A DNA stretch of 30,428 nucleotides from an uncultured Fibrobacterota bacterium (lineage in GTDB: Bacteria; Fibrobacterota; OXYB2-FULL-49-7; JAEUSG01), in the NCBI GenBank assembly GCA_963831235.1, contig CAWHPS010000066.1, forward strand, positions 1 through 30,428, in the 5' to 3' direction. The notes below the pieces were generated by a model. That model had not been told where the DNA came from. It saw nothing but the letters and a program-made list of their open reading frames with translations, and searched no databases. Made by a program: the position numbers and the translations under genes. Shown in pieces: positions 1,139-22,994 of this stretch. Within the stretch, counting starts at the first letter, position 1. The number at the start of each line of letters is the position of its first letter.

Positions 1139-1358
1139 GAAGAAAAAATAATACTTAATTAAATATTGGACAATTTCAATGTTTTTGTTGCGATGGTGCT
1201 GTCTTGTTTGAATAGCATTGTTAACACAAAATTATTTTAAAATAATAAGTAAATATGCTAATAAATTGATTTCAAATCAGTTGATGTTAACAAGCTGGTA
1301 ACACTTTGTTGAATTTTGCCTTGCTATTCTGGTAGGAATAGCTTAAATTTATGTGCAT

Positions 1359-2189
1359 ATGAAACCAATTTTTGAATATACTAATTACCGGGTCTTTCTA
1401 AAGGACTACTATGCCCACATGAAGGAGAGTACGCATTTTTTCTCCTTCCGTTTTTTTTCCAAACGGGCGGGCTTCAATTCCCCGCAAATCCTTAAGTATG
1501 TCATGGAGGGGGAACGTAACCTGGGCACTGAAAGTATCGAAAAATTCATTGTTGCCCTTACTCTCAAAAACCGAGAGGCGGATTATTTCCGGGCTCTGGT
1601 GAATTTCAACCAGGCTGGAACGGAAAAGGATAAGAGCATCCATTTCAAGGAACTCATCCGCGCCTCGGAAGGTGGGGATATCAAACAGTTGCATAAGAAT
1701 CAATATGAGGTTTTTAGCAATTGGTATTATGTCCCTATCCGGCAAATGGTCTCGCTTAATGGTTTCAAGGAGGATCCACAATGGATTGCCTCCAGTCTGA
1801 AGCCCGCCATCAAACCGGCCGAAGCCCAAAAAGCGCTTGATCGCCTCAAGGAACTGGGCATATTGCGGTACGATGGACAAGGCAAGTTGGTCCAATCGGA
1901 CGCCTTCATCAAAACCGAGGATGAAGTCCAATCCTTATGGCTCAGGAAGTTCCATAATCACATGATCCGGCTTGCCCAGGAATCCATTGAGCGGGTTCCA
2001 AAAGAGGAAAGGGAGATTAGCTCCGTTACGCTTAGTGTTCCAAAATCGGAAATTCAAAATATCAAAACCATGATTTCGGCCTTTGAAGACGAGATAATGG
2101 AAATGCTTGCAAAAAAGCCTGATGAGGCGGAAACCGTTTATCAACTTAATTTCCAGTTCTTCCCCCTAATGGAAAGGAAACCGGAATAA
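1359..2189 (+). CDS. TIGR02147 family protein (Fibrobacter succinogenes paralogous family; putative HTH regulator), copy 1
   Basis: ORF 1353..2189. The N-terminus reads MKPIFEYTNYRVFLKDYYAHMKE..FSFRFFSKRAGFNSPQILKYVMEGERNLGTESIEKF...ADYFRALVNFNQAGT. This matches the conserved N-terminal signature of TIGR02147 proteins as I recall it (YxDYRxFLKDYY ... FSYRxFAxKAG..SP..L..V..GKRNLT). It is paralogous to 10824..11642. The likely start is the ATG at 1359, since 1353 is a GTG. Confidence 0.8.
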   Translation: MKPIFEYTNYRVFLKDYYAHMKESTHFFSFRFFSKRAGFNSPQILKYVMEGERNLGTESIEKFIVALTLKNREADYFRALVNFNQAGTEKDKSIHFKELIRASEGGDIKQLHKNQYEVFSNWYYVPIRQMVSLNGFKEDPQWIASSLKPAIKPAEAQKALDRLKELGILRYDGQGKLVQSDAFIKTEDEVQSLWLRKFHNHMIRLAQESIERVPKEEREISSVTLSVPKSEIQNIKTMISAFEDEIMEMLAKKPDEAETVYQLNFQFFPLMERKPE

Positions 2190-3853
2190 TGCGACTACTT
2201 AAAACCTGTGTTGTACTCTCAATATTGTTATGGGGCTGCGGTTCCCAACCAGGGAATGTTGCGGGTAACAGTGGTACCAAGGCTGGAAACGCCATAGTGA
2301 CTGGGTTCATACGGGATCCGGGCGGTCGTATGGCTGCCGGAGTTGATGTCGTTTTGCGGGACAGGGATTTCCTCCCTGCAGGCACGCCCGGAACACCTGC
2401 GGGGTTTGGACATCAGTATTTCGCGAAAACAGATAGCAATGGCGGGTTCCATTTTTCAGATCTGGAAACCGGTCTTTATCTTTTAGAAGCCCGTAGCGGG
2501 GACACTCTCGGCACCGTGCGCGATTCCATTGACTGCAAAGGCAAATCCGGAACGGATATTAATATTGAAGATACCCTGAAGCCCGTTGGCGGAATGACGG
2601 GTATCCTGGAATTCCCGGATTCCATAGTTTATACGGCCATTACCATAGGCCTGCCGGGTTATTCCTTCCAAATAACCCCGGACTCCACGGGCTTCTTCCG
2701 ATTCGCTGGACTCTCTCCGGCAAGTTACCGGCTCCGTGTTTTCGTTCAAACGGATACGTTGGCAAGTTGGGATACGGTCCAAATCCAAATCACGGTGAAA
2801 ATCACAATTTCACTTGATACGATTTCGCTTATCAGCCATTGGCGGAGTACGAATACCTCTGGTTTCTCTCCGGCAAGCAACGGACGGATCTCCCTTACCG
2901 CATGGGATGCGTCGCCCTCGCTTGCCTACCAGCATTCCTCTCCTGATAATGGTATCAATGTCCTTGGGTTTCACCATGGAACCTGGAACAGTCTGGGTAA
3001 TTCAACCGTTTCCGGTAGCACTGCCGCGCATCCAATCTTGATACCATGGGGCCGGAATCTATTCATGTGCTATATCGACGGGGATAATGCAAACCGCCTT
3101 ACCGCCTTTATTTGGAATGGCGCCCAATGGCAACCCGCCGGTGTTCCAGGCTTCACGCCTCCGGGAATCGCCATATACGCTTTAACCGGTGATTCCTCCC
3201 AGGCGTGGGTTGGGTATGCGGACCCGGGACAGGGCGGTCGTATTACCGTGCAACGGTACTTTGGCGGGCAATGGCAGGTTCTGGGAAATCCTGGCTTCAG
3301 TTCCGGCGTTGCCAATGAAATAGCCATGGCTGTTCTGAACGGTGCGCCCATTCTTGCGTATACGGATGCCACACAGGGGAATCGAGTCACGGTGCTCCGC
3401 TTCTCCGGCGACGACTGGCAGCATCTTGGACCGGCCATTGTCTCCGATGGCCCTGTTGGTTCGCTTTGTCTGCGGGAATTCCATCAGGCGCCTGTGCTCG
3501 CCTATTGCGATTCTGCTCACGGCGCGGCGATTTCAGTCCGCTCCTGGTCGAACAACAGCTGGGCTTATCTTGATTCTCCGGGTTTCACCAATTCCCCCGC
3601 AGGCCTTGTCCGGTTGGCTGCGGATGAAGAGAAATTGGTATTAGCCTATCTGGACAATGATTTTATGAACCAAGCGCGGGTTTGTGAGTGGAATGGAAGG
3701 GAATGGAAAATGCTGAGCATCCGCAAACTACCTTATTTGCCGGCAAGGGAGTTGGATATCGCCCTGGTGAAGGGAACGCCGTGGCTCGCGGTTCTGGATA
3801 CGAAATTTACCAATAATGTTTCCGTGCTGCAATACATTAAAAGGCTTTTTTAA
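2189..3853 (+). CDS. lipoprotein with N-terminal carboxypeptidase-regulatory-like domain followed by tandem ~47-aa W/G-rich repeats (beta-propeller-like)
   Basis: Signal peptide plus Cys (MRLLKTCVVLSILLWGC). A CarbopepD_reg-like block follows (AIVTGFIRDPGGRMAAGVDVVL...TDSNGGFHFSDLETGLYLLEA). Then come at least 6 repeats of the pattern LAY.D...G.R.TV.R.....W..LG.PGF(S/T). The start ATG overlaps the upstream stop (TAATG). This gene is GC-rich relative to its neighbours. Confidence 0.85.
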   Translation: MRLLKTCVVLSILLWGCGSQPGNVAGNSGTKAGNAIVTGFIRDPGGRMAAGVDVVLRDRDFLPAGTPGTPAGFGHQYFAKTDSNGGFHFSDLETGLYLLEARSGDTLGTVRDSIDCKGKSGTDINIEDTLKPVGGMTGILEFPDSIVYTAITIGLPGYSFQITPDSTGFFRFAGLSPASYRLRVFVQTDTLASWDTVQIQITVKITISLDTISLISHWRSTNTSGFSPASNGRISLTAWDASPSLAYQHSSPDNGINVLGFHHGTWNSLGNSTVSGSTAAHPILIPWGRNLFMCYIDGDNANRLTAFIWNGAQWQPAGVPGFTPPGIAIYALTGDSSQAWVGYADPGQGGRITVQRYFGGQWQVLGNPGFSSGVANEIAMAVLNGAPILAYTDATQGNRVTVLRFSGDDWQHLGPAIVSDGPVGSLCLREFHQAPVLAYCDSAHGAAISVRSWSNNSWAYLDSPGFTNSPAGLVRLAADEEKLVLAYLDNDFMNQARVCEWNGREWKMLSIRKLPYLPARELDIALVKGTPWLAVLDTKFTNNVSVLQYIKRLF

Positions 3854-3874
3854 ACTTTCACAAAAGGAGTTCAC

Positions 3875-5365
3875 ATGTTCAACAAAATCCGTGTCATTCT
3901 CGGGAACCTCAGTGGTTTGGGATACTCGCCACTGGTGATGATCGCACTCTTCGTCCTCGTGGTGCGCACTTCAGGGGGGCTCACAGATTGGGTTTATGTC
4001 AAGTCCTTAAGCCAGCCGGGACCCAACCCTGGAATGTGCAATGTCAAAAACATCGCCATCAAAGGCGACTCGCTCTGGGCAAACACCTCCGGCGGTTTAA
4101 TGCTCTACCGCATATCCACCGGGGAAAAAAAGTTCTTCAAAAAGATCGTGGATGATAATGGCGGTGAACGCTTGACGCTGGACAGTAGTGGCGGTCTCTG
4201 GCTCATGCGCACCAACATGGGGAATGCGAGTGACTCATCGTATTACCTCAACTTGAAAACCGGTGCTTGGTCAACTTTATCAAAATTCAGTCAGAATATT
4301 ACTACGGACAAAGACGGATATGTCTGGATTCAAAAATCCGTGTGGCCGGACACGTTTGGAGGTTTGGAGCGTTTCGATGGAACGAGGTGGAAATCTTTTG
4401 ACAGACGCAATACGACTTTTCCTGCAGGTTGGAAGTCAACCAACCCGAATCCGTTTGTCGTTAATTCGATTTGTCCCTCACCCGACGGCAATCTCTGGGT
4501 TGGCTCGCAAACGCAGGGATTGTGGAAGTTTGATGGCGACTCCTTGGCTGTTGCCTTTACAACGGCAAACTACGGACTATTATCGGATGCTTATATCAGA
4601 AAAATTATCGTGGATAATGAAAGCAATATCTGGTTCACATGTGCGGAAGGTCTCATGTGTTATGATGGAATTCAAATGAAGGCTTTCCCTTTTGGGGCGG
4701 ATCTTCCCGGAAATAATCTTCTGTCCATACTATTCGGTCCCGGAAATAAAATATATGTGGGAAGCGCCACCTATGGAACCGTTTCCGGTGGTTTAGGGGA
4801 AGGCTTATCCGTTTATGATAAAAATACGAGGGGTTGGCAGAACCTGAATGCCCTAAACTCCGGATTGCCGGACAATTTCATCAACTGCCTGGCCAAGGAC
4901 AACGCAGGGCGGATCTGGATCGGCACAAAAAACGGCGGTTTGGTAAAGTTGGAGGGTGGTGTCTTTCAGACAATGTTCTTGCCCTCCATACCGAATTATA
5001 ATCTGGACGATTTTGTTTCTGACGGGCAGGGCGGCTTTTGGTTCAAGGGCCAGGGCTCTGCTCAGGGCTTAATTCATTGGGATGGTCGATCCGCATGGAC
5101 ACAGTCTTCTTCAATTATCTATCCATGGTCAATCGCAAAGGGGCCGGATAAACAACTTTGGGTTAGCGCCTATAAGCAGGGTATTACAAGTTTCGATGGA
5201 ATTTCAAAGTGGACCTCTTATGGGGAGTCCGACGGCTTGACCTGGAATACGGCGACACAGATTGCTGTTGACAAAAAAAAGGATTTGTCTGGACCAATTC
5301 GAAATATTGTGTGGGGGGCGGGACGCCCATACAAAATATGGGATTGGTTTTTTTTAACGGGGTAA
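3875..5365 (+). CDS. two-component regulator propeller (Reg_prop) repeat protein, N-terminal part (frame broken near 5273-5280)
   Basis: N-terminal signal/TM (LVMIALFVLVV). Multiple Reg_prop-like blades (DGNLWVGSQTQGLWKFDG; NESNIWFTCAEGLMCYDG; AGRIWIGTKNGGLVKLEGG). AAAGGAG RBS 6 nt upstream. The 3' end overlaps the next ORF in another frame. Confidence 0.8.
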   Translation: MFNKIRVILGNLSGLGYSPLVMIALFVLVVRTSGGLTDWVYVKSLSQPGPNPGMCNVKNIAIKGDSLWANTSGGLMLYRISTGEKKFFKKIVDDNGGERLTLDSSGGLWLMRTNMGNASDSSYYLNLKTGAWSTLSKFSQNITTDKDGYVWIQKSVWPDTFGGLERFDGTRWKSFDRRNTTFPAGWKSTNPNPFVVNSICPSPDGNLWVGSQTQGLWKFDGDSLAVAFTTANYGLLSDAYIRKIIVDNESNIWFTCAEGLMCYDGIQMKAFPFGADLPGNNLLSILFGPGNKIYVGSATYGTVSGGLGEGLSVYDKNTRGWQNLNALNSGLPDNFINCLAKDNAGRIWIGTKNGGLVKLEGGVFQTMFLPSIPNYNLDDFVSDGQGGFWFKGQGSAQGLIHWDGRSAWTQSSSIIYPWSIAKGPDKQLWVSAYKQGITSFDGISKWTSYGESDGLTWNTATQIAVDKKKDLSGPIRNIVWGAGRPYKIWDWFFLTG

Positions 5366-6195
5366 AGTGGCAGTGCTATGACACGACGAATTCGTCCCTC
5401 GTTAATAATGATTTCGTGGGGCCATGCCTTGACACAAATGGAAATGCATGGATAATATGTAAGAACGCAACCAAGAACTATTGCCTTGTCAGTTTTAACG
5501 GGACTCAATGGACAGACCCAGTAGATCTCGGGCCCATTCAAAACCCCACTTGCCTCACTGTGGATAATCAGAATAATATCTGGATCGGAACTTCTGGTTA
5601 TGGACTTTTGAAATTTACCGGAATTAGCAGCCCGCTCCAATATTTTTCCATGACCGGGACCCCGCTCCTTACAAATGATATCGCGGCATTAACAGTAGAC
5701 GGTTCTGGCAAGATTTGGTGCGGGGTGACGGATATATCCCTTAACGGCAAAGGGGGTGGGATCGCCGAATATTCAGAGGGCAACTGGACTTATTATACCA
5801 AAGACAATTCAGGATTGCCCGCCAACCAAATCGGCCAAATTTGGGCCGGCGACTCCGGGCGGATTTGGGTACTGAGCGGCGACGGGTTCTGCTCTTTCCG
5901 AGAGGAGGCTATCACAGGGTCCGAACATGCATCCCCCGCAACGCATCCGGCTTTTAATCTTGAACTGAATCCTAATCCATTCAATCCGTCTACAGTCATT
6001 TCCGTAACGGGAGCGGACCGTCCTATTGACATATCGATATTCGGTTTGGACGGCAGGAAAATCTACCATTATCCGAATCTGGCGCCGGAGGTTGAGCTGA
6101 CTTGGAACGCCCGAGGGTTCGCCTCTGGGGTTTATATTGTCAAAGCCACAGCCGGAAACCGCGTCTGCTTAAAAAAGATTTTACTTCAAAAATAG
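5311..6195 (+). CDS. Reg_prop repeat protein C-terminal part with T9SS (Por) C-terminal sorting domain; probably the continuation of 3875..5365
   Basis: More blades (NNIWIGTSGYGLLKFTG; GKIWCGVTD; GRIWVLSGDGFCSF). A C-terminal T9SS tail follows (NPNPFNPSTVISV...IFGLDGRKIYH...ASGVYIVKATAGNRVCLKKILLQK). This frame is open from 5272, and the listed start is a GTG. Confidence 0.75.
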   Translation: MGGGTPIQNMGLVFFNGVKWQCYDTTNSSLVNNDFVGPCLDTNGNAWIICKNATKNYCLVSFNGTQWTDPVDLGPIQNPTCLTVDNQNNIWIGTSGYGLLKFTGISSPLQYFSMTGTPLLTNDIAALTVDGSGKIWCGVTDISLNGKGGGIAEYSEGNWTYYTKDNSGLPANQIGQIWAGDSGRIWVLSGDGFCSFREEAITGSEHASPATHPAFNLELNPNPFNPSTVISVTGADRPIDISIFGLDGRKIYHYPNLAPEVELTWNARGFASGVYIVKATAGNRVCLKKILLQK

Positions 6196-6222
6196 GCTTA
6201 CGGGAAACCTAAAGGAGGGCAC

Positions 6223-7887
6223 ATGAAACTTACCTTAAAAGTCCTTTGCTTCGCGGCAATCATTGTGTTGAGCATGAGCGCTTATATCTCTGCCGCGGAT
6301 GTCGATTCCATCAGTTTTGATACTACTGTTATAGGAATGATGCCCATCGCAACTACCGTGGACATCTATCTCAACAAATACATTGCCGGAATAAGCATGA
6401 AAGTAATAGATGGATTTCTCATCACAGCATTGGAAGTTGTAAAATATGACGCTTTCGGTAATCTGGCATGGCGATACAAACGTGATTATCCGGACACTTT
6501 GGGAGACATACATCAGGCCGTAAACCCGGTAAAGGTTTTGTCGGATCCGAAGGGCAATCTCTATTTAGTTGGATATTATGCATACTGGACAGACACCTGG
6601 TCTGACACAACGGGTGTGAACCAGAACTGGCTTTACCTGCTAAAAATCGACTTATCCGGGAACTTGAGTTGGGAACGTCTCTGGCGCAAGAACGACAGTA
6701 GCTCCGTAATACCAGCGGATGCCGCTCTTGATGGGGCAAACAACCTTATTATTGGAATTAACTCCGATAATGGTATTGACGGAAATGCCGCACACTTCTC
6801 CGCGCTTATAAAATACAGCTCCAGCGGTCAGTTTCTCTGGTCCAGTTTCTATGATTTTGCGGCCACAAATAATCTGAGTTACTATTTCAACGGAATTCGG
6901 AAAGTTATTGTTCGAAACAACACCATCGGCGTTGGCGGGGATTATACCAAGTCGAGTCATTGGCTTGCCAGGGTTTCACTGGATTCGGGGCATGTCATTT
7001 GGAACAGTCAACAGACGGCAGGCGGAAGCGGCACTTTTATAGACATGGCAATGGGTCCGCAACGCGAGTTTGTCAGTCTTTCCAGAAGCGACCTGGGATT
7101 GGGGATAATGGAAAGATACGATTCCAGTGGAACGCTAAGCTGGCAAAATAATGATGACAGCACGCTCTATTTCACAACTTGCGTTGATTTTAAGGGAAAT
7201 TCCTGGGTGGCTGGAACCAAAGGCGGTAAAGCCATAGTGTCAGTCTGCAAATATAGCCCGAATGGTACAAAGCTCGCCGAAGCGAATGAACCTTTATTGC
7301 GCAATACGACTAGCTCCATTATCAAATGCGATGATTTTGGCCATGGGGTTCTTTTAAGTGAAAGCGCCAATTCTGACACTCTTTTCATTTGTTGTTACGA
7401 TACAGCGCTTAATAAAATCGTGACCTTTGCCAAACGTGTTGAAGGAGGCGTCAACGACGCACAGATTTACATCCAGGCCTTCGATAAGTTGTTGAAAAAC
7501 GGCCGGACAAAGGCAGAAACGCCTACCCGGGTTATTGTGATTGCCCAGAACTCCGTATTGGCCTCTTTTGTACAATACACTTTGCCGGACAACATTGCGA
7601 TAGACAAGAATACGTTATCTAATGCAATGAATTTGGAGCTTATGTGTGAACCCAACCCGTTCAATCCGATGGCCGTAATATCCTTCGATCTCCCGCATGC
7701 GTCTCCCGTGACGCTCAAACTCCTCCGCGTGGATGGCCAGGTCATCCGAACCCTGGTGAGAGGCATATACGCCGCAGGCCGGTACCGATTTTCTCTCAAC
7801 GGCACAGGTCTTGCCAGCGGAACCTATTTTTGCCGTATGCAGGCGGGAACACATTCATTGAGCAAGGCAATCCTATTGCAAAAATAA
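6223..7887 (+). CDS. secreted repeat protein with T9SS C-terminal sorting domain
   Basis: Signal peptide (MKLTLKVLCFAAIIVLSMSAYISA|AD). C-terminal tail CEPNPFNPMAVISFDL...LLRVDGQVIRTL...ASGTYFCRMQAGTHSLSKAILLQK. AAGGAGG RBS upstream. Confidence 0.85.
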   Translation: MKLTLKVLCFAAIIVLSMSAYISAADVDSISFDTTVIGMMPIATTVDIYLNKYIAGISMKVIDGFLITALEVVKYDAFGNLAWRYKRDYPDTLGDIHQAVNPVKVLSDPKGNLYLVGYYAYWTDTWSDTTGVNQNWLYLLKIDLSGNLSWERLWRKNDSSSVIPADAALDGANNLIIGINSDNGIDGNAAHFSALIKYSSSGQFLWSSFYDFAATNNLSYYFNGIRKVIVRNNTIGVGGDYTKSSHWLARVSLDSGHVIWNSQQTAGGSGTFIDMAMGPQREFVSLSRSDLGLGIMERYDSSGTLSWQNNDDSTLYFTTCVDFKGNSWVAGTKGGKAIVSVCKYSPNGTKLAEANEPLLRNTTSSIIKCDDFGHGVLLSESANSDTLFICCYDTALNKIVTFAKRVEGGVNDAQIYIQAFDKLLKNGRTKAETPTRVIVIAQNSVLASFVQYTLPDNIAIDKNTLSNAMNLELMCEPNPFNPMAVISFDLPHASPVTLKLLRVDGQVIRTLVRGIYAAGRYRFSLNGTGLASGTYFCRMQAGTHSLSKAILLQK

Positions 7888-7970
7888 GGAAGTGCCGGAA
7901 AAACAGAATTTTCGGATAGCACGCAGTAAAGCAAAACGAAGAGTTTTAACTTTTACACGGGAGGTCTCTT

Positions 7971-8099
7971 ATGGATTCTGTTCTCAGAAATATCAAATCA
8001 GCAACCCTTCCCTTTTTCCCTCAAGAAAAAGGGAAGGGTTGGGATGGGTTTGGTAATTTGATAAATGGTTTTATCCAACATATAGTAGGTACCCCATGA
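7971..8099 (+). CDS. candidate 42-codon small ORF with strong SD (MDSVLRNIKSATLPFFPQEKGKGWDGFGNLINGFIQHIVGTP)
   Basis: GGGAGG sits 6 nt upstream of the ATG at 7971. The ORF is not in the track, presumably because of a length cut-off. A perfect 17-bp hairpin is embedded in its coding sequence. No homology support. Confidence 0.25.
   Translation: MDSVLRNIKSATLPFFPQEKGKGWDGFGNLINGFIQHIVGTP
8002..8041. terminator. perfect 17-bp inverted repeat / stem-loop (CAACCCTTCCCTTTTTC-cctcaa-GAAAAAGGGAAGGGTTG); candidate terminator or attenuator
   Basis: Read directly: 8002-8018 pairs perfectly with 8025-8041, with a 6-nt loop. It lies in a 350-bp intergenic region between two + strand genes. It lacks a clean U-tract, so an intrinsic-terminator call is tentative. 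Confidence 0.35.
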
Positions 8100-9792: not shown

Positions 9793-10095
9793 TCAGGCAT
9801 GGGCGAGACTGCGGTTCCGTTTTATAGGTTCAAGGGATAACCGATATCCAATAGCACGGCTGGCTTTGAGGTAGGTCATTATATTACAATTCTCGCCTTT
9901 CTCAAGCCTGGAATATTGTTGCTGGGTTAGGTGTGCTTTCTTTGCAACGTCTGTTTGAGTTTCCCCTCTTTTCTCACGCTCTTCATTCAGCCGGTATGCC
10001 AGTTCAAGAAGTTCCTTTTCTTCTTCATGGTATTCTTTGAATTTGGGGTATTTAAGCTGTTCTTTCAGGTACTTATCAAATGATGTCATGGTCAA
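9793..10095 (-). CDS. higA: XRE-family HTH DNA-binding protein; HigA-like antitoxin
   Basis: The HTH segment TQTDVAKKAHLTQQQYSRLEKGE is typical of Cro/C1 (XRE) proteins. Its start overlaps the 3' end of the upstream toxin gene by 20 bp. Confidence 0.8.
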   Translation of the reverse strand: MTMTSFDKYLKEQLKYPKFKEYHEEEKELLELAYRLNEEREKRGETQTDVAKKAHLTQQQYSRLEKGENCNIMTYLKASRAIGYRLSLEPIKRNRSLAHA

Positions 10096-10489
10096 GCCTC
10101 CTTATCGTATTTACATTGTAGTGCTTGAGGAAATCATTTCTGTATTCCTTTGCGCGAACAATCTCTTTCTTTGGAACCTTGTCTGTTGTTTTCACAAAAT
10201 CATGCGTCAGAATAATGTAGTCCCGATAACAGAAAAAATAGAGAATTCGAGTCTGCTCACCGGATAGCTTCATTCTCAGTTCATGGATACCATCTTCAAG
10301 AATGTCTGCGAATGGACGATGCAGGCTGATTCCATGTTCCTTGAGCAACCCTATCCACGATACTGCTTTGGCACGCTCCCGTATATCCAAAGAATCGAGA
10401 AATTTGCGAATAGGACATTCTCCTTCCTCTGATTTGTAAAAATGCACCTTCCATTGTCGTTCCACTTGATAAATATACACCTTATTCAA
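10076..10489 (-). CDS. higB: type II toxin, RelE/ParE superfamily, phage Gp49-like (HigB-like)
   Basis: 137 aa. ...CPIRKFLDSLD..RAKAVSWIGLLKEHGISLHRPFADILEDGIHELRMKLSGEQTRILYFFCYRDYIILTHDFVKTTDKVPKKEIVRAKEYRNDF matches the Gp49-like (DUF891) toxin family. Toxin-first order with overlap onto an XRE antitoxin. Confidence 0.8.
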   Translation of the reverse strand: MNKVYIYQVERQWKVHFYKSEEGECPIRKFLDSLDIRERAKAVSWIGLLKEHGISLHRPFADILEDGIHELRMKLSGEQTRILYFFCYRDYIILTHDFVKTTDKVPKKEIVRAKEYRNDFLKHYNVNTIRRLDHDII

Positions 10490-10823
10490 CGTAAACGCAA
10501 ATTATTGTTTAATTGATATTGAAAATGATAACCTTTCCCGCTATGAAACCAATCATGCTGAACTCCTCAAACATTTCTCAGGTCTACTCCACCTAAAAGA
10601 TACCGGTTGAGGATAAAATAATCCATCAAAGATTAATTCACTCATTTTGTCCTGGATTCTTTTGGCTCATTTTTGAATACAATCTGGAAAAAAAGTTGTG
10701 TCGTAATTGCAGTTTGTCTTGTTTACATTTTAGAACGATTTTTTTTAATAATAGCTAATTAAACTTGTTTTATTACCTTATATTCTTTATTTTTTGTTCA
10801 CATTTATCAAGGAGTTTATTGTT

Positions 10824-11642
10824 ATGGATACACTTTATGAGTATTCAGATTATCGAAAATACATCAAAGACTACTATGAAAATAATAAAGCACGAACCCC
10901 GAATTTTTCTTTCCGTTATCTTTCTATGAAGGCTGGCATCAATTCAGCCTCCTTCTTCAAGTCCATCATGGATGGAACACGAAACTTGACAAAAAATACT
11001 ATCCTCAAAACCTGTCTTGCTCTCAAACTTGCCGACAAAGAAGCTGAATATTTTGAGAATCTGGTGTTTTTTAATCAGGCGAAAAGTATAGCAGATAAAA
11101 ATGTTTATTTTGACAGACTCGTTGGATTTCAGAAACTGAAGAACCTTAAACTTGTTAAAGAAGAAGAATATGATTTTTACGCCGAATGGTATCATTGTAT
11201 TATCAGGGAATTGGCAGTCAACTTGGATTTTAAGGACAATTTTGCTTTGCTTGCCAGTAAGATATTGCCTACCATAACAGCCAAACAGGCTGAAAAATCA
11301 GTGAGCCTTCTACTGAAGCTTGGTTTCTTAAAAAAAGAAAACAACCGATACGTACAAAGAGATCCTGTTATTTCATCTGGGAATTCAATTAAATCTCATC
11401 AGATTACCCAGTTTCAGATAAAGATGTTGCAGCGTGCAATGGAAGCCTATGACCGCAGTCAAACCGATGAGCGAATGATGTCCTCTACCACATTCAATAT
11501 ATCAAAGGAGTCCTTTGAATACTTCAAGAAGAAAATCCGTGAAATTCGATCACATCTGCTGGAAATCGCACGCACAGACGACAAATCAGACAGAATATAT
11601 CAAATGAACATTAACCTTTTCCCTGTTTCCAAAACTAATTAA
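10824..11642 (+). CDS. TIGR02147 family protein (putative HTH regulator), copy 2
   Basis: ORF 10794..11642. MDTLYEYSDYRKYIKDYYENNKARTPNFSFRYLSMKAGINSASFFKSIMDGTRNLTKNTILK...AEYFENLVFFNQAKS is the same signature as copy 1. AAGGAG RBS 9 nt upstream of the ATG at 10824. AT-rich codon usage, unlike copy 1. Confidence 0.8.
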   Translation: MDTLYEYSDYRKYIKDYYENNKARTPNFSFRYLSMKAGINSASFFKSIMDGTRNLTKNTILKTCLALKLADKEAEYFENLVFFNQAKSIADKNVYFDRLVGFQKLKNLKLVKEEEYDFYAEWYHCIIRELAVNLDFKDNFALLASKILPTITAKQAEKSVSLLLKLGFLKKENNRYVQRDPVISSGNSIKSHQITQFQIKMLQRAMEAYDRSQTDERMMSSTTFNISKESFEYFKKKIREIRSHLLEIARTDDKSDRIYQMNINLFPVSKTN

Positions 11643-17470: not shown

Positions 17471-18517
17471 TTATTCACAAAACAGATGAACGGACGCGGC
17501 TGAAAATTCCAAACAGATTGAATCACCTTTTTTAATACCTGATTTTTCTAGTTCTCTGAATGACAAATAAAAAGTAACCGGCGTACTTTGATCTGTTTTG
17601 ATCTTCGCATAAGCACCTGAAATATGGATTTCTGAAACTATTGTTGTGATTCTGTTTTCGGACTTAAGGTTATTGGGATTTGCAATTGATATCTCCCATG
17701 GAGGAAGATATACCATTAACTGCACTCCTGCCTTTTTTCCGGTTTTTATGCGTATGTTTCCTATTGCAGTTATAACATTTTCCCTGTTGTCATCCGTTGA
17801 CTCACCCTTGAAGATATTATCAAGCCGCAGTATCCTGGCTACTGAAAGTGATGAAGGAGACCTGTAAAGTTCAGCCGGTGTCCCTGTTTGAATTATCCGG
17901 CCTTTGTGCATTATCCCCACCCTGTCGGCAACAAGCCCCGCCTCATCAAATGAATGGCACACGTGGATGACGGACAGCCCGAATTCCCTTTGGACCTTTT
18001 TAAGCTCCTCGCAAACAGCCTGACGTGTATATTCATCCAGTGCGCTTACAGGTTCGTCAAGAATCAGGGCCCGGGGTCTGCTCACAATGGCCCTGCCGAG
18101 GGCAACCCTTTGGCGTTCACCACCGGATAAACCTCGGATGCGTCGATCCAGCAAATGACTTATGTGAAGGATTCCGGCGACCTTTTCAACAGCGGAGTTG
18201 CATTCAGGTTTGGAAACACCTTTCACATTCAGTGCAAAACCGATATTGTGTCTTACGTCAAGATGGTCGAATAGCGCACCATCCTGCGGAACATATCCGA
18301 TTCCCCGATCACGGGGTTCAGATGTAGTAATATCTTGTCCATCCACAAAAATATTTCCACCGGCCGGTTTACGCAACCCGCAGAGGTTCTCAAGAAAAAG
18401 AGTTTTACCGGAGCCGGTCATGCCAAGGAGCACAAAATACTCATTGTCAAGAACATTAATCGTCACGTTAAGGTCAAACGAACCAATTGAATAAGCTAAT
18501 CCTTCCATTCTAATCAT
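17471..18517 (-). CDS. modC: ABC transporter ATP-binding protein with C-terminal TOBE domain (ModC/TupC/WtpC type, molybdate/tungstate)
   Basis: Walker A GMTGSGKT. Signature LSGGERQRVALGRA. Walker B LILDEP. C-terminal ~110 aa TOBE-like extension. Confidence 0.85.
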   Translation of the reverse strand: MIRMEGLAYSIGSFDLNVTINVLDNEYFVLLGMTGSGKTLFLENLCGLRKPAGGNIFVDGQDITTSEPRDRGIGYVPQDGALFDHLDVRHNIGFALNVKGVSKPECNSAVEKVAGILHISHLLDRRIRGLSGGERQRVALGRAIVSRPRALILDEPVSALDEYTRQAVCEELKKVQREFGLSVIHVCHSFDEAGLVADRVGIMHKGRIIQTGTPAELYRSPSSLSVARILRLDNIFKGESTDDNRENVITAIGNIRIKTGKKAGVQLMVYLPPWEISIANPNNLKSENRITTIVSEIHISGAYAKIKTDQSTPVTFYLSFRELEKSGIKKGDSICLEFSAASVHLFCE

Positions 18518-19236
18518 CGGCTGCCCCCTGAACCGAATATGTTGCCGCCGGAAAAGATTCGAAGTAAAAGCAGTGTAATAAAGGCTGCGACAATCATAAC
18601 AAGAGAGACTGCAAGGGCTGTTTCAAGCCTGCCAATTGATATTTCAAGATAGATTGAGGTTGACAAAACTTCTGTTTTCTGGCGGACAGCCCCGGCAACA
18701 ATGGCAACAGGTCCAAAAAGCCCGAAAGATCTTGCCCAGCTTAAAACCGCTCCGGCCATAATCCCCTGTTTTGCAAGAGGCAGTGTAATCCGCCTGAAAG
18801 CTCCGGCGCGTGTGCAGCCCAAAGTCATGGCAACCTGCTCTGTGCGCGGATCTATGTGGTCAAAAGCCGCTTTTATCGTGCGGATTGCGAATGATATTGA
18901 ACAAAAGAACTGCGCCAAAACAATGCCTGACCTGTTGTAAATAAAGAAATCTCCAAGATAGGTCATTATTCTTCCAAACCATGCGATTAAAGCAACATGC
19001 GAACCTGAAAGGTCTGCCCCCATCCTGAAAAGCACAAGGAGACTTACTCCAATTACAAGCACAGGAAGAATAATTAATAGATCCACGATAACATCCAGAA
19101 CATCCGAACCCTTGAACGGGTAACGGCTGAGCCCGTAAGCTGAAAACACGCCGATTACAAGGCATAGCCCGGTAGTTACTATTGATGTCCAAAGGGTTAG
19201 AATAAAAGCAGCACGAATATCAGGAGATAAAAGCAC
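18514..19236 (-). CDS. modB: ABC transporter permease (ModB/TupB type)
   Basis: About 5-6 TM helices. EAA loop EQVAMTLGCTRAGAFRRITLPLAKQGIMAG. 4-bp overlap with modC. Confidence 0.85.
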   Translation of the reverse strand: MLLSPDIRAAFILTLWTSIVTTGLCLVIGVFSAYGLSRYPFKGSDVLDVIVDLLIILPVLVIGVSLLVLFRMGADLSGSHVALIAWFGRIMTYLGDFFIYNRSGIVLAQFFCSISFAIRTIKAAFDHIDPRTEQVAMTLGCTRAGAFRRITLPLAKQGIMAGAVLSWARSFGLFGPVAIVAGAVRQKTEVLSTSIYLEISIGRLETALAVSLVMIVAAFITLLLLRIFSGGNIFGSGGSR

Positions 19237-19365
19237 TTCCAGTATCGAGGATTTGCCGATATATGCTGCGTCAGTCTGCGATGATTAAAATTACAGACCC
19301 TGAAAAGGCAAGGAGCACGGATGTTACAATAATTCTGAAAAGAGGCAATCGTTTAAATAAATTGT

Positions 19366-20142
19366 TCACTTAACCGGCTTCTCCGTATCATATCCCTCTT
19401 TCTTTAAAACATCTTTTGATTTGTCTGATGCAAGAAAATCAAGAAACATTCCAGCTTCGGCCTTATTGTTTGAAAAGGACAGCACCGCGGCCCCGACAAC
19501 AGGTATTACATTCTTTTGAACAGGAATGGCTATGCAATCGGAAACATCCTTATACGGCTTTGCAACAGCGCTCCATACAATTGCAGCGTCAATGGTACCA
19601 AGTTTCAAGGCAATCCCAAGTTCATTTACAGTCGGTGTTGACAAAGCAATATTCTTCTTCCATGCCAGGGAATCAACATTATTTAGAAAAAGAATCTGAG
19701 GCATGATCCTGCCTATTGCAGCGGCCTTTTCATCACCTTGACCGATTTTAAATCCCTTGACAGCCAAATCCTGAAGGGTTTTTATCCCCTTAGGATTGTT
19801 TTTCTTTACCATTATAACCGGGACAAAATAGCATACAGTAACGGATTTACCCACAAGTGATTCCTTACGGGCCATATCAATATATTCAGCATCGCCTGGA
19901 ATATAAACATCGCCCTTACGGGTAAGTTTTATCTGGCCGAGAAGCCTGTTGGAGCCGTCAAAGGTAAGCTCAACCTTTGAGCCCTTCTCTTTTTCATAAG
20001 TCTTTGCCAGCGTTTCAATGGGTTTTCGCATACCCGCAGCGCAATAGACCAGAAGCTTTTTAGAACTCCCGGGAACAGCCGTCTCTTGTGCATTAATGAC
20101 GCTTATTAAAAAAAGCAAGATACTGAAAATAACAGCCTTCAT
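19366..20142 (-). CDS. modA: molybdate/tungstate-binding periplasmic protein (ModA/WtpA-like), copy 2
   Basis: ORF 19366..20199. Likely start at the internal Met (MKAVIFSILLFLISVINAQ signal) with AAAGGAA RBS. LLVYCAAGMRKPIETLAKTYEKEKGSKVELTFDGS resembles the ModA N-terminus. Confidence 0.8.
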   Translation of the reverse strand: MKAVIFSILLFLISVINAQETAVPGSSKKLLVYCAAGMRKPIETLAKTYEKEKGSKVELTFDGSNRLLGQIKLTRKGDVYIPGDAEYIDMARKESLVGKSVTVCYFVPVIMVKKNNPKGIKTLQDLAVKGFKIGQGDEKAAAIGRIMPQILFLNNVDSLAWKKNIALSTPTVNELGIALKLGTIDAAIVWSAVAKPYKDVSDCIAIPVQKNVIPVVGAAVLSFSNNKAEAGMFLDFLASDKSKDVLKKEGYDTEKPVK

Positions 20143-20162
20143 AGTTGGTTCCTTTTCAAAAT

Positions 20163-20987
20163 TTAATTGGTTGGAACTCCAAACCCGAACTTTTTCCATA
20201 TTTCACGTGCTTCCGGTGATACTGCAAATTCAGCAAACGCTGTTGCCTCTTTCAGGTTCTTTGAACACTTAAGGGTGGAGATTGTCACACGAATGTCGCC
20301 CATATCGATTTTCCCGAAAGTAGCCGCGGTAATCACATCAACACCGCTTTTGAGACGGTAATCGGATTCAATGGACACAGTATCAAGTTTATCCGTTCTT
20401 AAATATGCTACCGCATTCCAGACAATGGCTGCATCAGCAGTACCAATGCTGACGGCATTCGCAGCTTCACCGCCGCTGCGCGTTTCTGAAATAACATTGG
20501 CCTTGATTGCATCCCATACGCCAGCCTTTTTTCCCATTTCAGGAACAATATGTCCCATTGTAGAGTACAATGGATGGGTAAGAATCAGCTTTAACCCTTT
20601 TTCCCCAAGACTTTTAAGACCTGTAATTTTCTTTGGGTTGCCTTTTACCACTACGATTACCGGGCTCAAGCTTGCCATGACCCAGAACTTTTCTTCCAAC
20701 CCTTTTTTATTCAGGTCCATTTGAAAGGGATCGTGACATACAAAGAGGTCGCCTTTTTTTGTTTCAGTGATTCGAATTGTTAATTGTCCACTTTCACCCT
20801 GATCAAAATCAACTTTATTTCCGGTTTTTGCTTCGTATTCTTTTTGTAGGGCCTCCATTGCAGGACGCATTGTTCCACCAACATAACATAACAAATGCTC
20901 TTTAGCTGCTTTCTTGCCACATGAAAGCAGCATGAAAATCAGACACAGCCCAATGAAACCTGATGTTTTTAATACGTACTTCACCAA
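20163..20987 (-). CDS. modA: molybdate/tungstate-binding lipoprotein (ModA/WtpA-like), copy 1
   Basis: Lipoprotein signal IGLCLIFMLLSC. LLCYVGGTMRPAMEALQKEYEAKTGNKVDFDQGESGQL is ModA-like. Paralogous to 19366..20142. Confidence 0.8.
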   Translation of the reverse strand: MVKYVLKTSGFIGLCLIFMLLSCGKKAAKEHLLCYVGGTMRPAMEALQKEYEAKTGNKVDFDQGESGQLTIRITETKKGDLFVCHDPFQMDLNKKGLEEKFWVMASLSPVIVVVKGNPKKITGLKSLGEKGLKLILTHPLYSTMGHIVPEMGKKAGVWDAIKANVISETRSGGEAANAVSIGTADAAIVWNAVAYLRTDKLDTVSIESDYRLKSGVDVITAATFGKIDMGDIRVTISTLKCSKNLKEATAFAEFAVSPEAREIWKKFGFGVPTN

Positions 20988-21088: not shown

Positions 21089-21640
21089 GTGACAACAGGA
21101 CCTGAAATTTTTGATGAAGAACTCATGTCCCGGTTTATTAAAAACAATGATGAATCAGCTTTTAAATCGCTAGTTAACAGACACACAACCCGAATGTACA
21201 GGATCGCTTGTGCAATGCTCGGCTCTTCTCGGAACGCGGAAGATGCTGTTCAGGAATGCTTTATCCGTATTGTTTTTAGGCGACGTACGTTTCAGGATGG
21301 AACAACCTTCGCACCCTGGGCCTATACAATACTGCGCAATTTATGCATTGATGAAATCCGAAAAAATAAGGGCCGCTATTTCGAAGTTCTATCGCACGAA
21401 ACAATTGCCTCAAAAGATGATAGTGGGGTTTATGTTGAAGAAAAGGAAAAGATAAAGGCTGTTAGAAATGCAATCAAAGAATTGCCTGAAATAGAACAAA
21501 CAGCAATCACATTACGTATTTATGGTGAAATGGATTTTAATGCAATCGCAACTATTTGCAAAACCTCGCCTGATGCAATAAAAAAAAGATTTTACAGGGC
21601 ACTGGAAGAACTTAAAAAGTCTTTGTCCCTTTTCGAATGA
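21089..21640 (+). CDS. RNA polymerase sigma factor, ECF (sigma-70 group 4) family
   Basis: Region 2 (FKSLVNRHTTRMYRIACAMLGSSRNAEDAVQECFIRIV...APWAYTILRNLCIDEIRK) and region 4 (ELPEIEQTAITLRIYGEMDFNAIATICKTSPDAIKKRFYRALEELKK). GTG start with GAAGG RBS. Confidence 0.85.
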   Translation: MTTGPEIFDEELMSRFIKNNDESAFKSLVNRHTTRMYRIACAMLGSSRNAEDAVQECFIRIVFRRRTFQDGTTFAPWAYTILRNLCIDEIRKNKGRYFEVLSHETIASKDDSGVYVEEKEKIKAVRNAIKELPEIEQTAITLRIYGEMDFNAIATICKTSPDAIKKRFYRALEELKKSLSLFE

Positions 21641-21670
21641 TAATTCGTATATATGGTATAATGAGGTTTT

Positions 21671-22012
21671 ATGAATAATGATGATCAATATAATCAGATT
21701 ATAACCAGTCTTAAATCAGCCATTCCGGAAAATGCTCCATCGCATCTGGCTGAAAAAGCCTGCTTAGTAGGTCTGCAAGCGCTTAAAGCTGATAACCATA
21801 AGCATATCTTTACTCGTATTGCATTGCCACTAGCAGTCTGCATTCCTAATCCTGATCAGCGCATGGATTTTTATAACGCTTCACAAACCCGCTTTAAAGT
21901 CCCAGGCCGACTGCGGAGGTTGCTGGAATTTTGTCGGGTACGATGCTGCAAACAGCCGTCACAGCAGTTCCACATGCGCTCCTACCTCACTTTTATGGCA
22001 AACCTCTGTTGA
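21671..22012 (+). CDS. probable N-terminal (cytoplasmic) fragment of an anti-sigma factor; frame appears broken near 21834-21845
   Basis: It immediately follows the ECF sigma gene. The first ~55 aa look protein-like. The remainder (…CCKQPSQQFHMRSYLTFMANLC) looks like out-of-frame read-through over sequence that codes sensibly in another frame. Confidence 0.45.
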   Translation: MNNDDQYNQIITSLKSAIPENAPSHLAEKACLVGLQALKADNHKHIFTRIALPLAVCIPNPDQRMDFYNASQTRFKVPGRLRRLLEFCRVRCCKQPSQQFHMRSYLTFMANLC

Positions 22013-22067
22013 TAATCCTTCCGGCGCCTATAAACCGCTTGCCTGGAAAAATCTTATAATTGCAGGC

Positions 22068-22994
22068 ATGTGGCCTACCAATAGCAGAATAGGCGGCAGT
22101 ATTGTGGCATACAGCACCATTAATGGCAATGTTTTATGGAAACTTGATTTTAATCAGGGTGACATGTACAAGTCACGGCGTTTTCCTGATCGCTGCATAC
22201 ACAAACGCACTCTTTATGTAACAGATGGTGATGTTTGTCATGTTATTGACCCTCTTACAGGCAAACCTTTGGATGACATCACCCCTCCCCTTCCTGATGA
22301 CGGCTGGTCGTATCTTACTGCTGATGAAGGAAAATTGTTTGGGGCTTCACGGGATGGCCGTATGCTTTTTGGAATGGATGCTATATCTAAAAAAACAATC
22401 TGGACAAGAAAACTTGATTCACCAATATTCATACCCGCATTGCTAAAAGGTGTTCTGTATTGTCACGAACAATCCGGTACTTCTCGCGCAATAAATCTTA
22501 TTGATGGAAGAGATCTTTGGCAAAATACATCCGTCGGTATAAATGCCAAAGCCGGAGTGCATGCCTATAACAACAACATCCTTGTTCTCGGGCAGGACGA
22601 TTCTCTCGCGCTGATAGATTCAAAAACAGGTGCCTTGAAATGGAAGACCGGTGGCCCAGGTTATTATAACACAGGTCTTGCGCTTGGGGATTCGGCAGTC
22701 TATTTAAAAGGCGGCACACTGGCCCTCTCCATGAATAACGGCTCCATAATATGGGATAATGCAGGTTCAGGCATTGTACTTTGTGCTGCACCAACATTGA
22801 TAAAGGAAAACCTGATTAGCACATCAGGTCTTGGAGGCGGGAAACTGGGCGTATTGTCTCTCTCAGGAGACAAAGTCAGCAGTCTTAATTTTAATGATAA
22901 CGGTGTTTGTGACGGGGCAATTACATCAGGCGGACAGATTTATACTGTTGGTTCAGGTCGTGTCGTGGCATTTTCGTGCGGTTATGGTGGTTAA
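22068..22994 (+). CDS. PQQ-like beta-propeller repeat protein (BamB-like fold); probable periplasmic domain of the anti-sigma factor, frame open from 21834
   Basis: Repeats of the type G.LW......G.........G.LY.....G.L.A.D..TG...W (DGRDLWQNTSV; SKTGALKWKTGG; NNGSIIWDNAG). The same frame upstream of the first ATG encodes a TM helix (SAFLILISAWIFITL) and further PQQ-like sequence (LLWQTSVDNPSGAYKPLAWKNLIIAG) with no ATG/GTG/TTG. Confidence 0.8.
   Translation: MWPTNSRIGGSIVAYSTINGNVLWKLDFNQGDMYKSRRFPDRCIHKRTLYVTDGDVCHVIDPLTGKPLDDITPPLPDDGWSYLTADEGKLFGASRDGRMLFGMDAISKKTIWTRKLDSPIFIPALLKGVLYCHEQSGTSRAINLIDGRDLWQNTSVGINAKAGVHAYNNNILVLGQDDSLALIDSKTGALKWKTGGPGYYNTGLALGDSAVYLKGGTLALSMNNGSIIWDNAGSGIVLCAAPTLIKENLISTSGLGGGKLGVLSLSGDKVSSLNFNDNGVCDGAITSGGQIYTVGSGRVVAFSCGYGG

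Follow-up and report, generated by a model that had tools for sequence, protein, structure and literature searches.

Our analysis of the window (the whole stretch of DNA analyzed, 30,428 nt) supports the view, put forward in the initial annotation, that the segment spanning positions 21671–22994, although written as two reading frames, encodes the two halves of a single ECF anti-sigma factor gene. The best explanation for this arrangement, in which we place about half of our confidence, is a two-gene operon encoding an ECF sigma factor and a membrane anti-sigma factor, in which the frame of the latter gene has been broken by a one-base indel within the codons of the transmembrane (TM) helix. 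The features of this region are listed in Table 1.

Table 1. Features of the putative sigma/anti-sigma operon, and a further frameshift identified in the window
Feature	Position	Strand	Remarks
Second frameshift (A8 run)	5273..5280		splits a Reg_prop/T9SS-tail surface protein
Candidate ECF-type promoter	20954..20978	+	TGAAAC-N15-CGTA, SigW-like; 110 nt before the GTG of the sigma gene
ECF (group 4) sigma factor gene	21089..21640	+	183 aa; GTG start, GAAGG 8 nt upstream
ORF-A	21671..22012	+	113 aa; ATG preceded by GAGG (good SD)
Cytoplasmic N-terminal domain of the putative anti-sigma factor	21671..21817	+	residues 1–49, frame A
Segment encoding the TM helix	21818..21881	+	first part in frame A, rest in frame B; split by the frameshift
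Frameshift site	21836..21839	+	a single extra base, or another lesion with the same 3n+1 effect (two-base deletion)
Out-of-frame tail of ORF-A	21840..22012	+	approx. 58 codons, R- and C-rich, shift in composition
Periplasmic part, frame B	21882..22991	+	linker, then predicted 8-bladed BamB-like propeller; stop 22992..22994
First start codon of frame B	22068..22070	+	ATG; residue 79 of the frame-B translation

The first gene of the putative operon encodes a sigma-70 factor of the ECF group (group 4). Its predicted product contains the Pfam domains Sigma70_r2 (64.3 bits) and Sigma70_r4_2 (37.9 bits), with neither r3 nor r1, and its score with the sigma70-ECF model TIGR02937 (84.2 bits) is well above the cutoff (42.9). 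None of the equivalog-level NCBIfam cutoffs was passed by this protein, the best results being those obtained with PRK12513 (119.5/206) and sigma_PG0214 (110.5/130). A candidate for the ECF promoter that had been anticipated upstream of position 21089 could be found (Table 1), but the number of SigW-like motifs in the window (2 vs 0.62 expected, with at least two in 12 of 100 shuffles) is not significant, and a scan of the loci of the relatives showed that the motif is absent from all of them. We therefore rejected an autoregulated promoter at this site as anything other than a weak lead. A scan for sigma-70 promoters and terminators gave nothing useful.

ORF-A follows the sigma gene on the same strand, after a gap of 30 nt. 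Frame B, which is shifted by +1 with respect to ORF-A, is open from stop to stop over 386 codons (21834–22994), and a TAG codon lies just before it (21831–21833). Its first 78 codons include no ATG, GTG or TTG, which is the longest such run among the real genes of the window, and this start-less stretch encodes SAFLILISAWIFITL and ...LLWQTSVDNPSGAYKPLAWKNLIIAG. We found no SD sequence at a usable distance from the ATG codon at 22068, and none in frame B before this position. Neither product as written, i.e. ORF-A or the protein starting at ATG 22068, has a TM helix or a signal peptide. The initial description of this region (an ECF sigma gene, an ORF at 21671..22012 and a frame without a start from 21834 leading into an ORF at 22068..22994) proved accurate in all of its coordinates and quoted peptides. 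The possibility that the tail of ORF-A represents a second real frame was examined and dismissed, the length of its stop-free run being unremarkable (empirical p approx. 0.05). An alternative genetic code was rejected as well: upstream of 21834, frame B contains several different stop codons and carries no coding signal, so recoding offers no rescue.

The coding character of the start-less part of frame B is more than a matter of chance, since homologs align within it far upstream of ATG 22068. In tblastn searches the alignment with P0002 (435 aa; from a Fibrobacteres MAG) begins at window position 21924, i.e. 144 nt upstream of this codon (E = 4e-100), and that with P0003 (481 aa) at position 21873, 195 nt upstream (E = 6e-82). 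The homologs had been retrieved using the conceptual fusion of the two halves as the query, and the related loci inspected were L001/L003 (Fibrobacteres MAG), L004 (Planctomycetota MAG), L002/L006, L005, L007–L009, L010, L011 and L012/L013. The comparison with orthologs had been designated beforehand as the test that could overturn the one-gene interpretation, by revealing two separate ORFs in the relatives. The result was the opposite: in 9 of 9 distinct related loci the gene is a single, uninterrupted ORF of 430–492 aa, whose product consists of a short N-terminal domain in the cytoplasm, a single TM helix and an 8-bladed, BamB-like (Pfam PQQ_2) propeller. This supports the proposal that a frameshift or a sequencing error lies within one gene. 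BLASTP of the conceptual fusion against its closest relative, P0015, gave one segment (residues 1–441 vs 1–438) with 44% identity, and the alignments with P0016 and P0022 are also near end-to-end.

An orthologous ECF sigma gene lies directly upstream of the anti-sigma gene in eight of the nine distinct related loci, and the window sigma factor shares 37–56% identity with those encoded directly upstream of the fused homologs. The adjacent, co-oriented sigma/anti-sigma pair of the window, with its gap of 30 nt, is thus a conserved one. The exception is L005, which has no adjacent sigma gene and carries a gene for a large PQQ_2 protein upstream instead. The other flanking genes vary between the loci, and for this reason no conserved neighbors could be proposed as target genes of the regulon.

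The change between the two frames is +1 (one base extra or two missing), and the removal of one base at 21836–21839 restores a protein of 440 aa, collinear with P0015, as predicted from the expectation that a single-base change near 21834–21845 would fuse the halves. The surplus base was placed at these positions because the junction is flanked by two alanines that are invariant among the orthologs, Ala55 (GCA at 21833–21835, frame A) and Ala57 (GCA at 21840–21842, frame B). With one base removed, the TM segment showed no gap when aligned with those of the orthologs that have short-type N-termini. No homopolymer or slippery motif is present in the context of the junction (CTAGCAGTCTGCATT). The frameshift interrupts the codons of the TM helix: the Kyte-Doolittle value of the fusion is 2.43 (residues 51–69), in contrast to a peak of only 0.63 in ORF-A as encoded, and the model of the frame-B translation retains a helix at its beginning (H2-16). 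The TM prediction that had been advised for the conceptual fusion yielded one strong segment, present only in the fusion and matching that of P0002 in position. An N-terminal domain, a TM helix and a C-terminal domain are therefore not combined in one polypeptide as encoded, but are so combined in the conceptual fusion and in all of the relatives.

The part of frame B located behind the TM helix begins with a linker containing the motif CGGCW-x-FV-x-x-D-x-x-N-S-R and continues as a propeller, which matched Pfam PQQ_2 with 67–68 bits (cutoff 27.6). An AF2 model of the frame-B translation (pLDDT 87.2, pTM 0.85) predicted three strands, E49-58, E65-71 and E74-79 (pLDDT 86–92), which precede or reach residue 79, the position of ATG 22068; the model of P0002 contains 32 strands, i.e. 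eight blades of four strands. A protein starting at ATG 22068 would thus lack three strands of blade 1 as well as the W-x-FV..D..NSR segment, since both are encoded upstream of this codon. This, together with the missing SD sequence and the lack of a TM helix or signal peptide downstream, means that ATG 22068 is not a genuine gene start.

Two further readings accept the sequence as written and have to be weighed against these data. According to one of them, which we regard as very improbable, both frames are genuine genes, with ORF-A encoding a small soluble anti-sigma factor and the propeller being translated from a non-canonical start or from ATG 22068. The good SD sequence, the ATG codon and the complete cytoplasmic domain of ORF-A would fit such an arrangement, and the source pipeline did call both pieces as proteins (of 113 aa and 296/308 aa from this contig). 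However, the two-ORF layout was found in none of the relatives, the propeller frame would have to be read without a start codon or an SD sequence, or else without its first blade and without any signal for export or anchoring, and the TM helix is divided between the two frames. Moreover, the 58-codon tail of ORF-A has the composition of an out-of-frame sequence and no homologs beyond noise in Pfam and NCBIfam. Programmed +1 ribosomal frameshifting, by which the full-length anti-sigma factor would be made from the existing sequence, we consider more improbable still. The shift needed is indeed +1, and at the junction neither frame contains a stop, but the site offers neither a slippery nor a hungry-stop codon context and no upstream SD-like stimulator, ORF-A continues for 58 codons past it, and such an event is needed at none of the nine orthologous loci. 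The features of a prfB-type shift (a conserved frameshift with a slippery codon plus a stop or rare codon) are thus absent. Orthologs, on the one hand, and the missing start, SD sequence, export signal and slippery features, on the other, contradict both readings, which even jointly account for a very small share of the probability.

The interpretation as one broken anti-sigma gene leads to the following model. The intact gene would encode a protein of approx. 440 aa, in which a single TM helix connects a 49-residue cytoplasmic domain to an 8-bladed BamB-like propeller in the periplasm. The cytoplasmic domain presumably binds and holds the sigma factor, the propeller may sense a signal in the envelope and, upon this signal, the sigma factor would be set free and its regulon transcribed. 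The assignment as an anti-sigma factor is based on the conserved pairing with an orthologous sigma gene, the N-in single-pass architecture and the zinc anti-sigma domains present in many members of the family. In its present form, ORF-A would give a soluble 113-aa product consisting of the full cytoplasmic domain and a nonsense tail, and the transmembrane signalling link would be lost, since the propeller part has no start, SD sequence or export signal and its first blade is incomplete. De-repression of the ECF regulon, which had been suggested as the consequence of the frameshift, does not follow, because ORF-A keeps the whole cytoplasmic domain and could inhibit the sigma factor in a signal-blind manner.

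What this MAG contig shows is a gene split by a frameshift, an ordinary situation that reflects either a broken gene or a mistake in the assembly. An erroneous assembled consensus seems to us slightly more likely than a true recent mutation, its probability being a little above even; the anti-sigma gene of the organism itself would then be intact and ordinary. This slight preference stems from two observations. The anti-sigma gene shows no other decay, as there are 386 open codons and 29 of 29 family-invariant residues are kept, and a second frameshift is present in the same 30 kb, within a run of eight A residues (Table 1), where the addition of one A restores an ORF of 773 aa, 92–94% of which is covered by homologs of 697–845 aa. 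A point against an error is that indel errors usually arise in homopolymers, and there is none at the focal site.

A genuine recent mutation, to which we assign a probability somewhat below even, would make the anti-sigma gene a young pseudogene that has lost its sensor and its membrane anchor. The soluble 113-aa fragment could then either still bind the sigma factor, resulting in permanent, signal-blind repression, or be unstable, leaving the sigma factor constitutively active. Frameshifted regulators and surface proteins are common among real pseudogenes, the focal site has neither a homopolymer nor another typical error context, and the A8 frameshift in a T9SS-sorted surface protein could represent genuine phase variation by slipped-strand mispairing; the lack of further decay would also fit a very recent event. 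On the other hand, two broken genes out of approx. 28 in 30 kb is a high number for a healthy and accurately assembled genome, no second lesion is found in the 386 codons, and no independent contig confirms the first. Scans of genomes and metagenomes revealed only distant relatives, with no near-identical contig in the collections against which the site could be compared. If the frameshift is real and the 113-aa fragment binds the sigma factor, a single step would have turned a membrane sensor anti-sigma factor into a small soluble one that is blind to the signal, within a previously undescribed family whose BamB-like propellers are combined with a zinc ASDI in some members and with a short, class-II-like domain in others; we view this combination as unlikely.

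The anti-sigma factor was compared with the single-pass anti-sigma factors of class I (ASDI/ZAS), represented by RsiW, RslA, ChrR and RseA (as defined in PMC7406223). The fusion and its relatives resemble them in the location of the gene directly downstream of that of its ECF sigma factor and in the N-in topology, in which a single TM helix is followed by a sensor domain outside the cytoplasm, and some of the relatives carry, on the same propeller, the Hx3Cx2C motif or zf-HC2. In contrast, the N-terminal domain of the window protein (approx. 49 aa) lacks Hx3Cx2C and matches no anti-sigma domain profile, including the four-helix class I profile, and the sensor of this family is a BamB-like propeller. 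The designation as a classic N-in anti-sigma factor thus holds for the architecture of the fusion and its relatives, but not for the N-terminal domain, which is not of the ZAS/ASDI type as judged by profiles.

Searches of Pfam and NCBIfam with this domain gave no match (none to zf-HC2 at E ≤ 1, with the same result for P0002). The zf-HC2 profile (PF13490; cutoff 22.2 bits) was passed by relatives of the planctomycete type, encoded at L004 (27.9 bits) and L005 (23.3 bits), and the Hx3Cx2C (HxxxCxxC) motif occurs on the same propeller at these two loci and in P0017, P0019, P0024, P0026, P0027, P0031 and P0036. The N-terminus of the window protein is collinear with those of P0015, P0016, P0022, P0014, P0002, P0030 and P0032, which together with it form a subgroup with a cytoplasmic domain of approx. 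45–50 residues and no zinc motif. The AF2 model of the ortholog P0002 contains two helices in this region, H5-22 and H26-41, predicted with low pLDDT (43–53). MAFFT gave two conflicting placements of the short domain relative to the ZAS domain, and an alignment of the two types of N-termini with hhalign covered 17 columns, with the second helix on the helix-4 region, and was non-significant (E = 0.03, probability 1.6%).

Anti-sigma domains of fewer than 50 aa have been set aside as possible class II domains (PMC7406223), and by these definitions the short domain of the window protein would be class-II-like in size. The predicted, very short cytoplasmic sigma-binding region, with its two helices in P0002, is reminiscent of CnrY, although CnrY itself, unlike this family, lacks a large periplasmic domain. 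Since other members of the propeller family seem to belong to class I, the short domain may be a reduced class I domain, probably derived from a class I ancestor, rather than a relative of CnrY.

The best match of the propeller among solved structures was BamB (PDB 8orr, 3q54; Foldseek E approx. 1e-19, TM-score 0.73). Like BamB (YfgL), a lipoprotein of the BAM complex, it is a PQQ_2-type propeller with eight four-stranded blades, but only the fold is common: the identity is 16–18%, a lipoprotein (lipobox) signal is absent, anchoring being provided by the TM helix of the anti-sigma factor, and the family is marked by invariant residues and motifs of its own, i.e. D-R and the downstream G..C in RFPDRC...TDGxxC, as well as W-x-FV..D..N.R and C(D)G. 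Scores with the BamB models were far below their cutoffs (TIGR03300, 49.9 vs 285.2 bits; PRK11138, 33 vs 423). With PQQ-dependent alcohol and glucose dehydrogenases the propeller shares a remote similarity at the level of the repeats, and PF01011 is faint or weak in the relatives; however, the domain has approx. 330 aa (vs approx. 550 aa), shows no sign of a PQQ site and reaches only 25.8–27 bits with TIGR03075 (cutoff 480). The label "PQQ-like" given to the propeller in the initial annotation is therefore correct as regards its BamB-type PQQ_2 fold, but is a name of a fold and a clan only and does not denote a quinoprotein enzyme.

When 1.84 billion cluster representatives were searched exhaustively with HMMER, the true family proved to comprise approx. 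20 clusters (at 50% identity), whose full-length members have 430–490 aa, the remaining matches being generic multi-propeller proteins. For this family, the description as uncommon in the initial annotation is therefore correct. A literature search for anti-sigma factors with PQQ or BamB-like sensors found nothing relevant, and neither PQQ nor propellers are mentioned in the main text of two ECF/ASDI classification papers. The family, in which sigma binding is presumed, can thus be defined as a small, uncharacterized group of ECF anti-sigma factors whose periplasmic sensor resembles BamB; it is rare, but its architecture is conventional, and known ECF signalling is not overturned. A zinc anti-sigma domain and a two-helix domain of approx. 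45 residues alternate in it on the same sensor and with the same orthologous sigma factor, an observation of possible relevance to the origin of short anti-sigma domains.

For annotation purposes, the "proteins" of 113 aa and 296/308 aa should be flagged as frameshifted, since together they represent one anti-sigma gene split in two, and neither should be taken as a representative of the family. The three products of the window form singleton clusters, and one family member has elsewhere been named generically as a "PQQ-binding-like beta-propeller repeat protein".

Comparison of the window's anti-sigma/propeller protein with its family (alignment A6) revealed conserved, family-specific positions at residues 31-42, 119-135, 317 and 359 of frame B, the reading frame encoding most of the TM helix and the propeller. 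These positions, which BamB lacks, include (i) W-x-FV..D..N.R, just past the TM helix, (ii) the D-R and the downstream G..C of the motif RFPDRC...TDGxxC, and (iii) two further cysteines, C359 (invariant) and C317 (nearly invariant). The family-specific positions may make disulfide bonds in the periplasm or constitute a site for a ligand.

Upstream of the ECF sigma factor gene, we identified a candidate promoter similar to SigW-type ECF promoters, TGAAAC-N15-CGTA, situated 110 nt 5′ of the sigma start and within the 5′-end of a divergent binding-protein gene. The motif did not reach significance when scored across the window, and it was not found in the relatives' loci of the anti-sigma family. 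The divergent genes, which include those for two tandem SBP_bac_11 paralogs that are solute-binding proteins, resemble those of a ModABC/TupABC-like oxyanion transporter; related loci do not conserve this neighbourhood. At L005, the only relative's locus without a sigma gene alongside, the fused anti-sigma/propeller gene is flanked by two ORFs, one of which appears, by eye, to encode a TonB-like C-terminus.

Features in the window and at the relative's locus L005
Feature	Sequence	Coordinates	Strand	Remark
DUF4423 protein gene	window	1353..2189	+	
Frameshift-split gene, second in window	window	3875..6195	+	frameshift at A8 run 5273..5280
HTH_3 antitoxin gene	window	9793..10101	-	
Gp49/HigB-like toxin gene	window	10076..10489	-	
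DUF4423 protein gene	window	10794..11642	+	
Tandem SBP_bac_11 pair, permease, ABC ATPase	window	17471..20987	-	transporter genes
Candidate promoter	window	20954..20978	+	
Multi-PQQ_2 protein	L005	12..3383		1123 aa
ORF with TonB-like C-terminus (by eye)	L005	5115..6038		307 aa

The second split gene of the window, called as a pair of ORFs (3875..5365 and 5311..6195), encodes a propeller protein of the Reg_prop type that carries a T9SS sorting domain (Por_Secre_tail) at its C-terminus. Lengthening the A8 run by a single A restores one ORF of 773 aa, which is 92-94% covered by homologs of 697-845 aa. Phase variation and an erroneous indel in the homopolymer are the two candidate explanations of the frameshift. 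The block with Reg_prop, CarboxypepD_reg and T9SS-tail genes (2000..8000) has a GC content of 0.46-0.54, the remainder of the window approx. 0.38-0.44.

The overlapping antitoxin and toxin genes probably constitute a type II toxin-antitoxin pair. The two DUF4423 proteins, the T9SS tails and the ortholog from a Fibrobacteres MAG jointly point to a source organism that is Fibrobacterota-like. Each of the two DUF4423 genes is followed by genes for large proteins, secreted or unknown.
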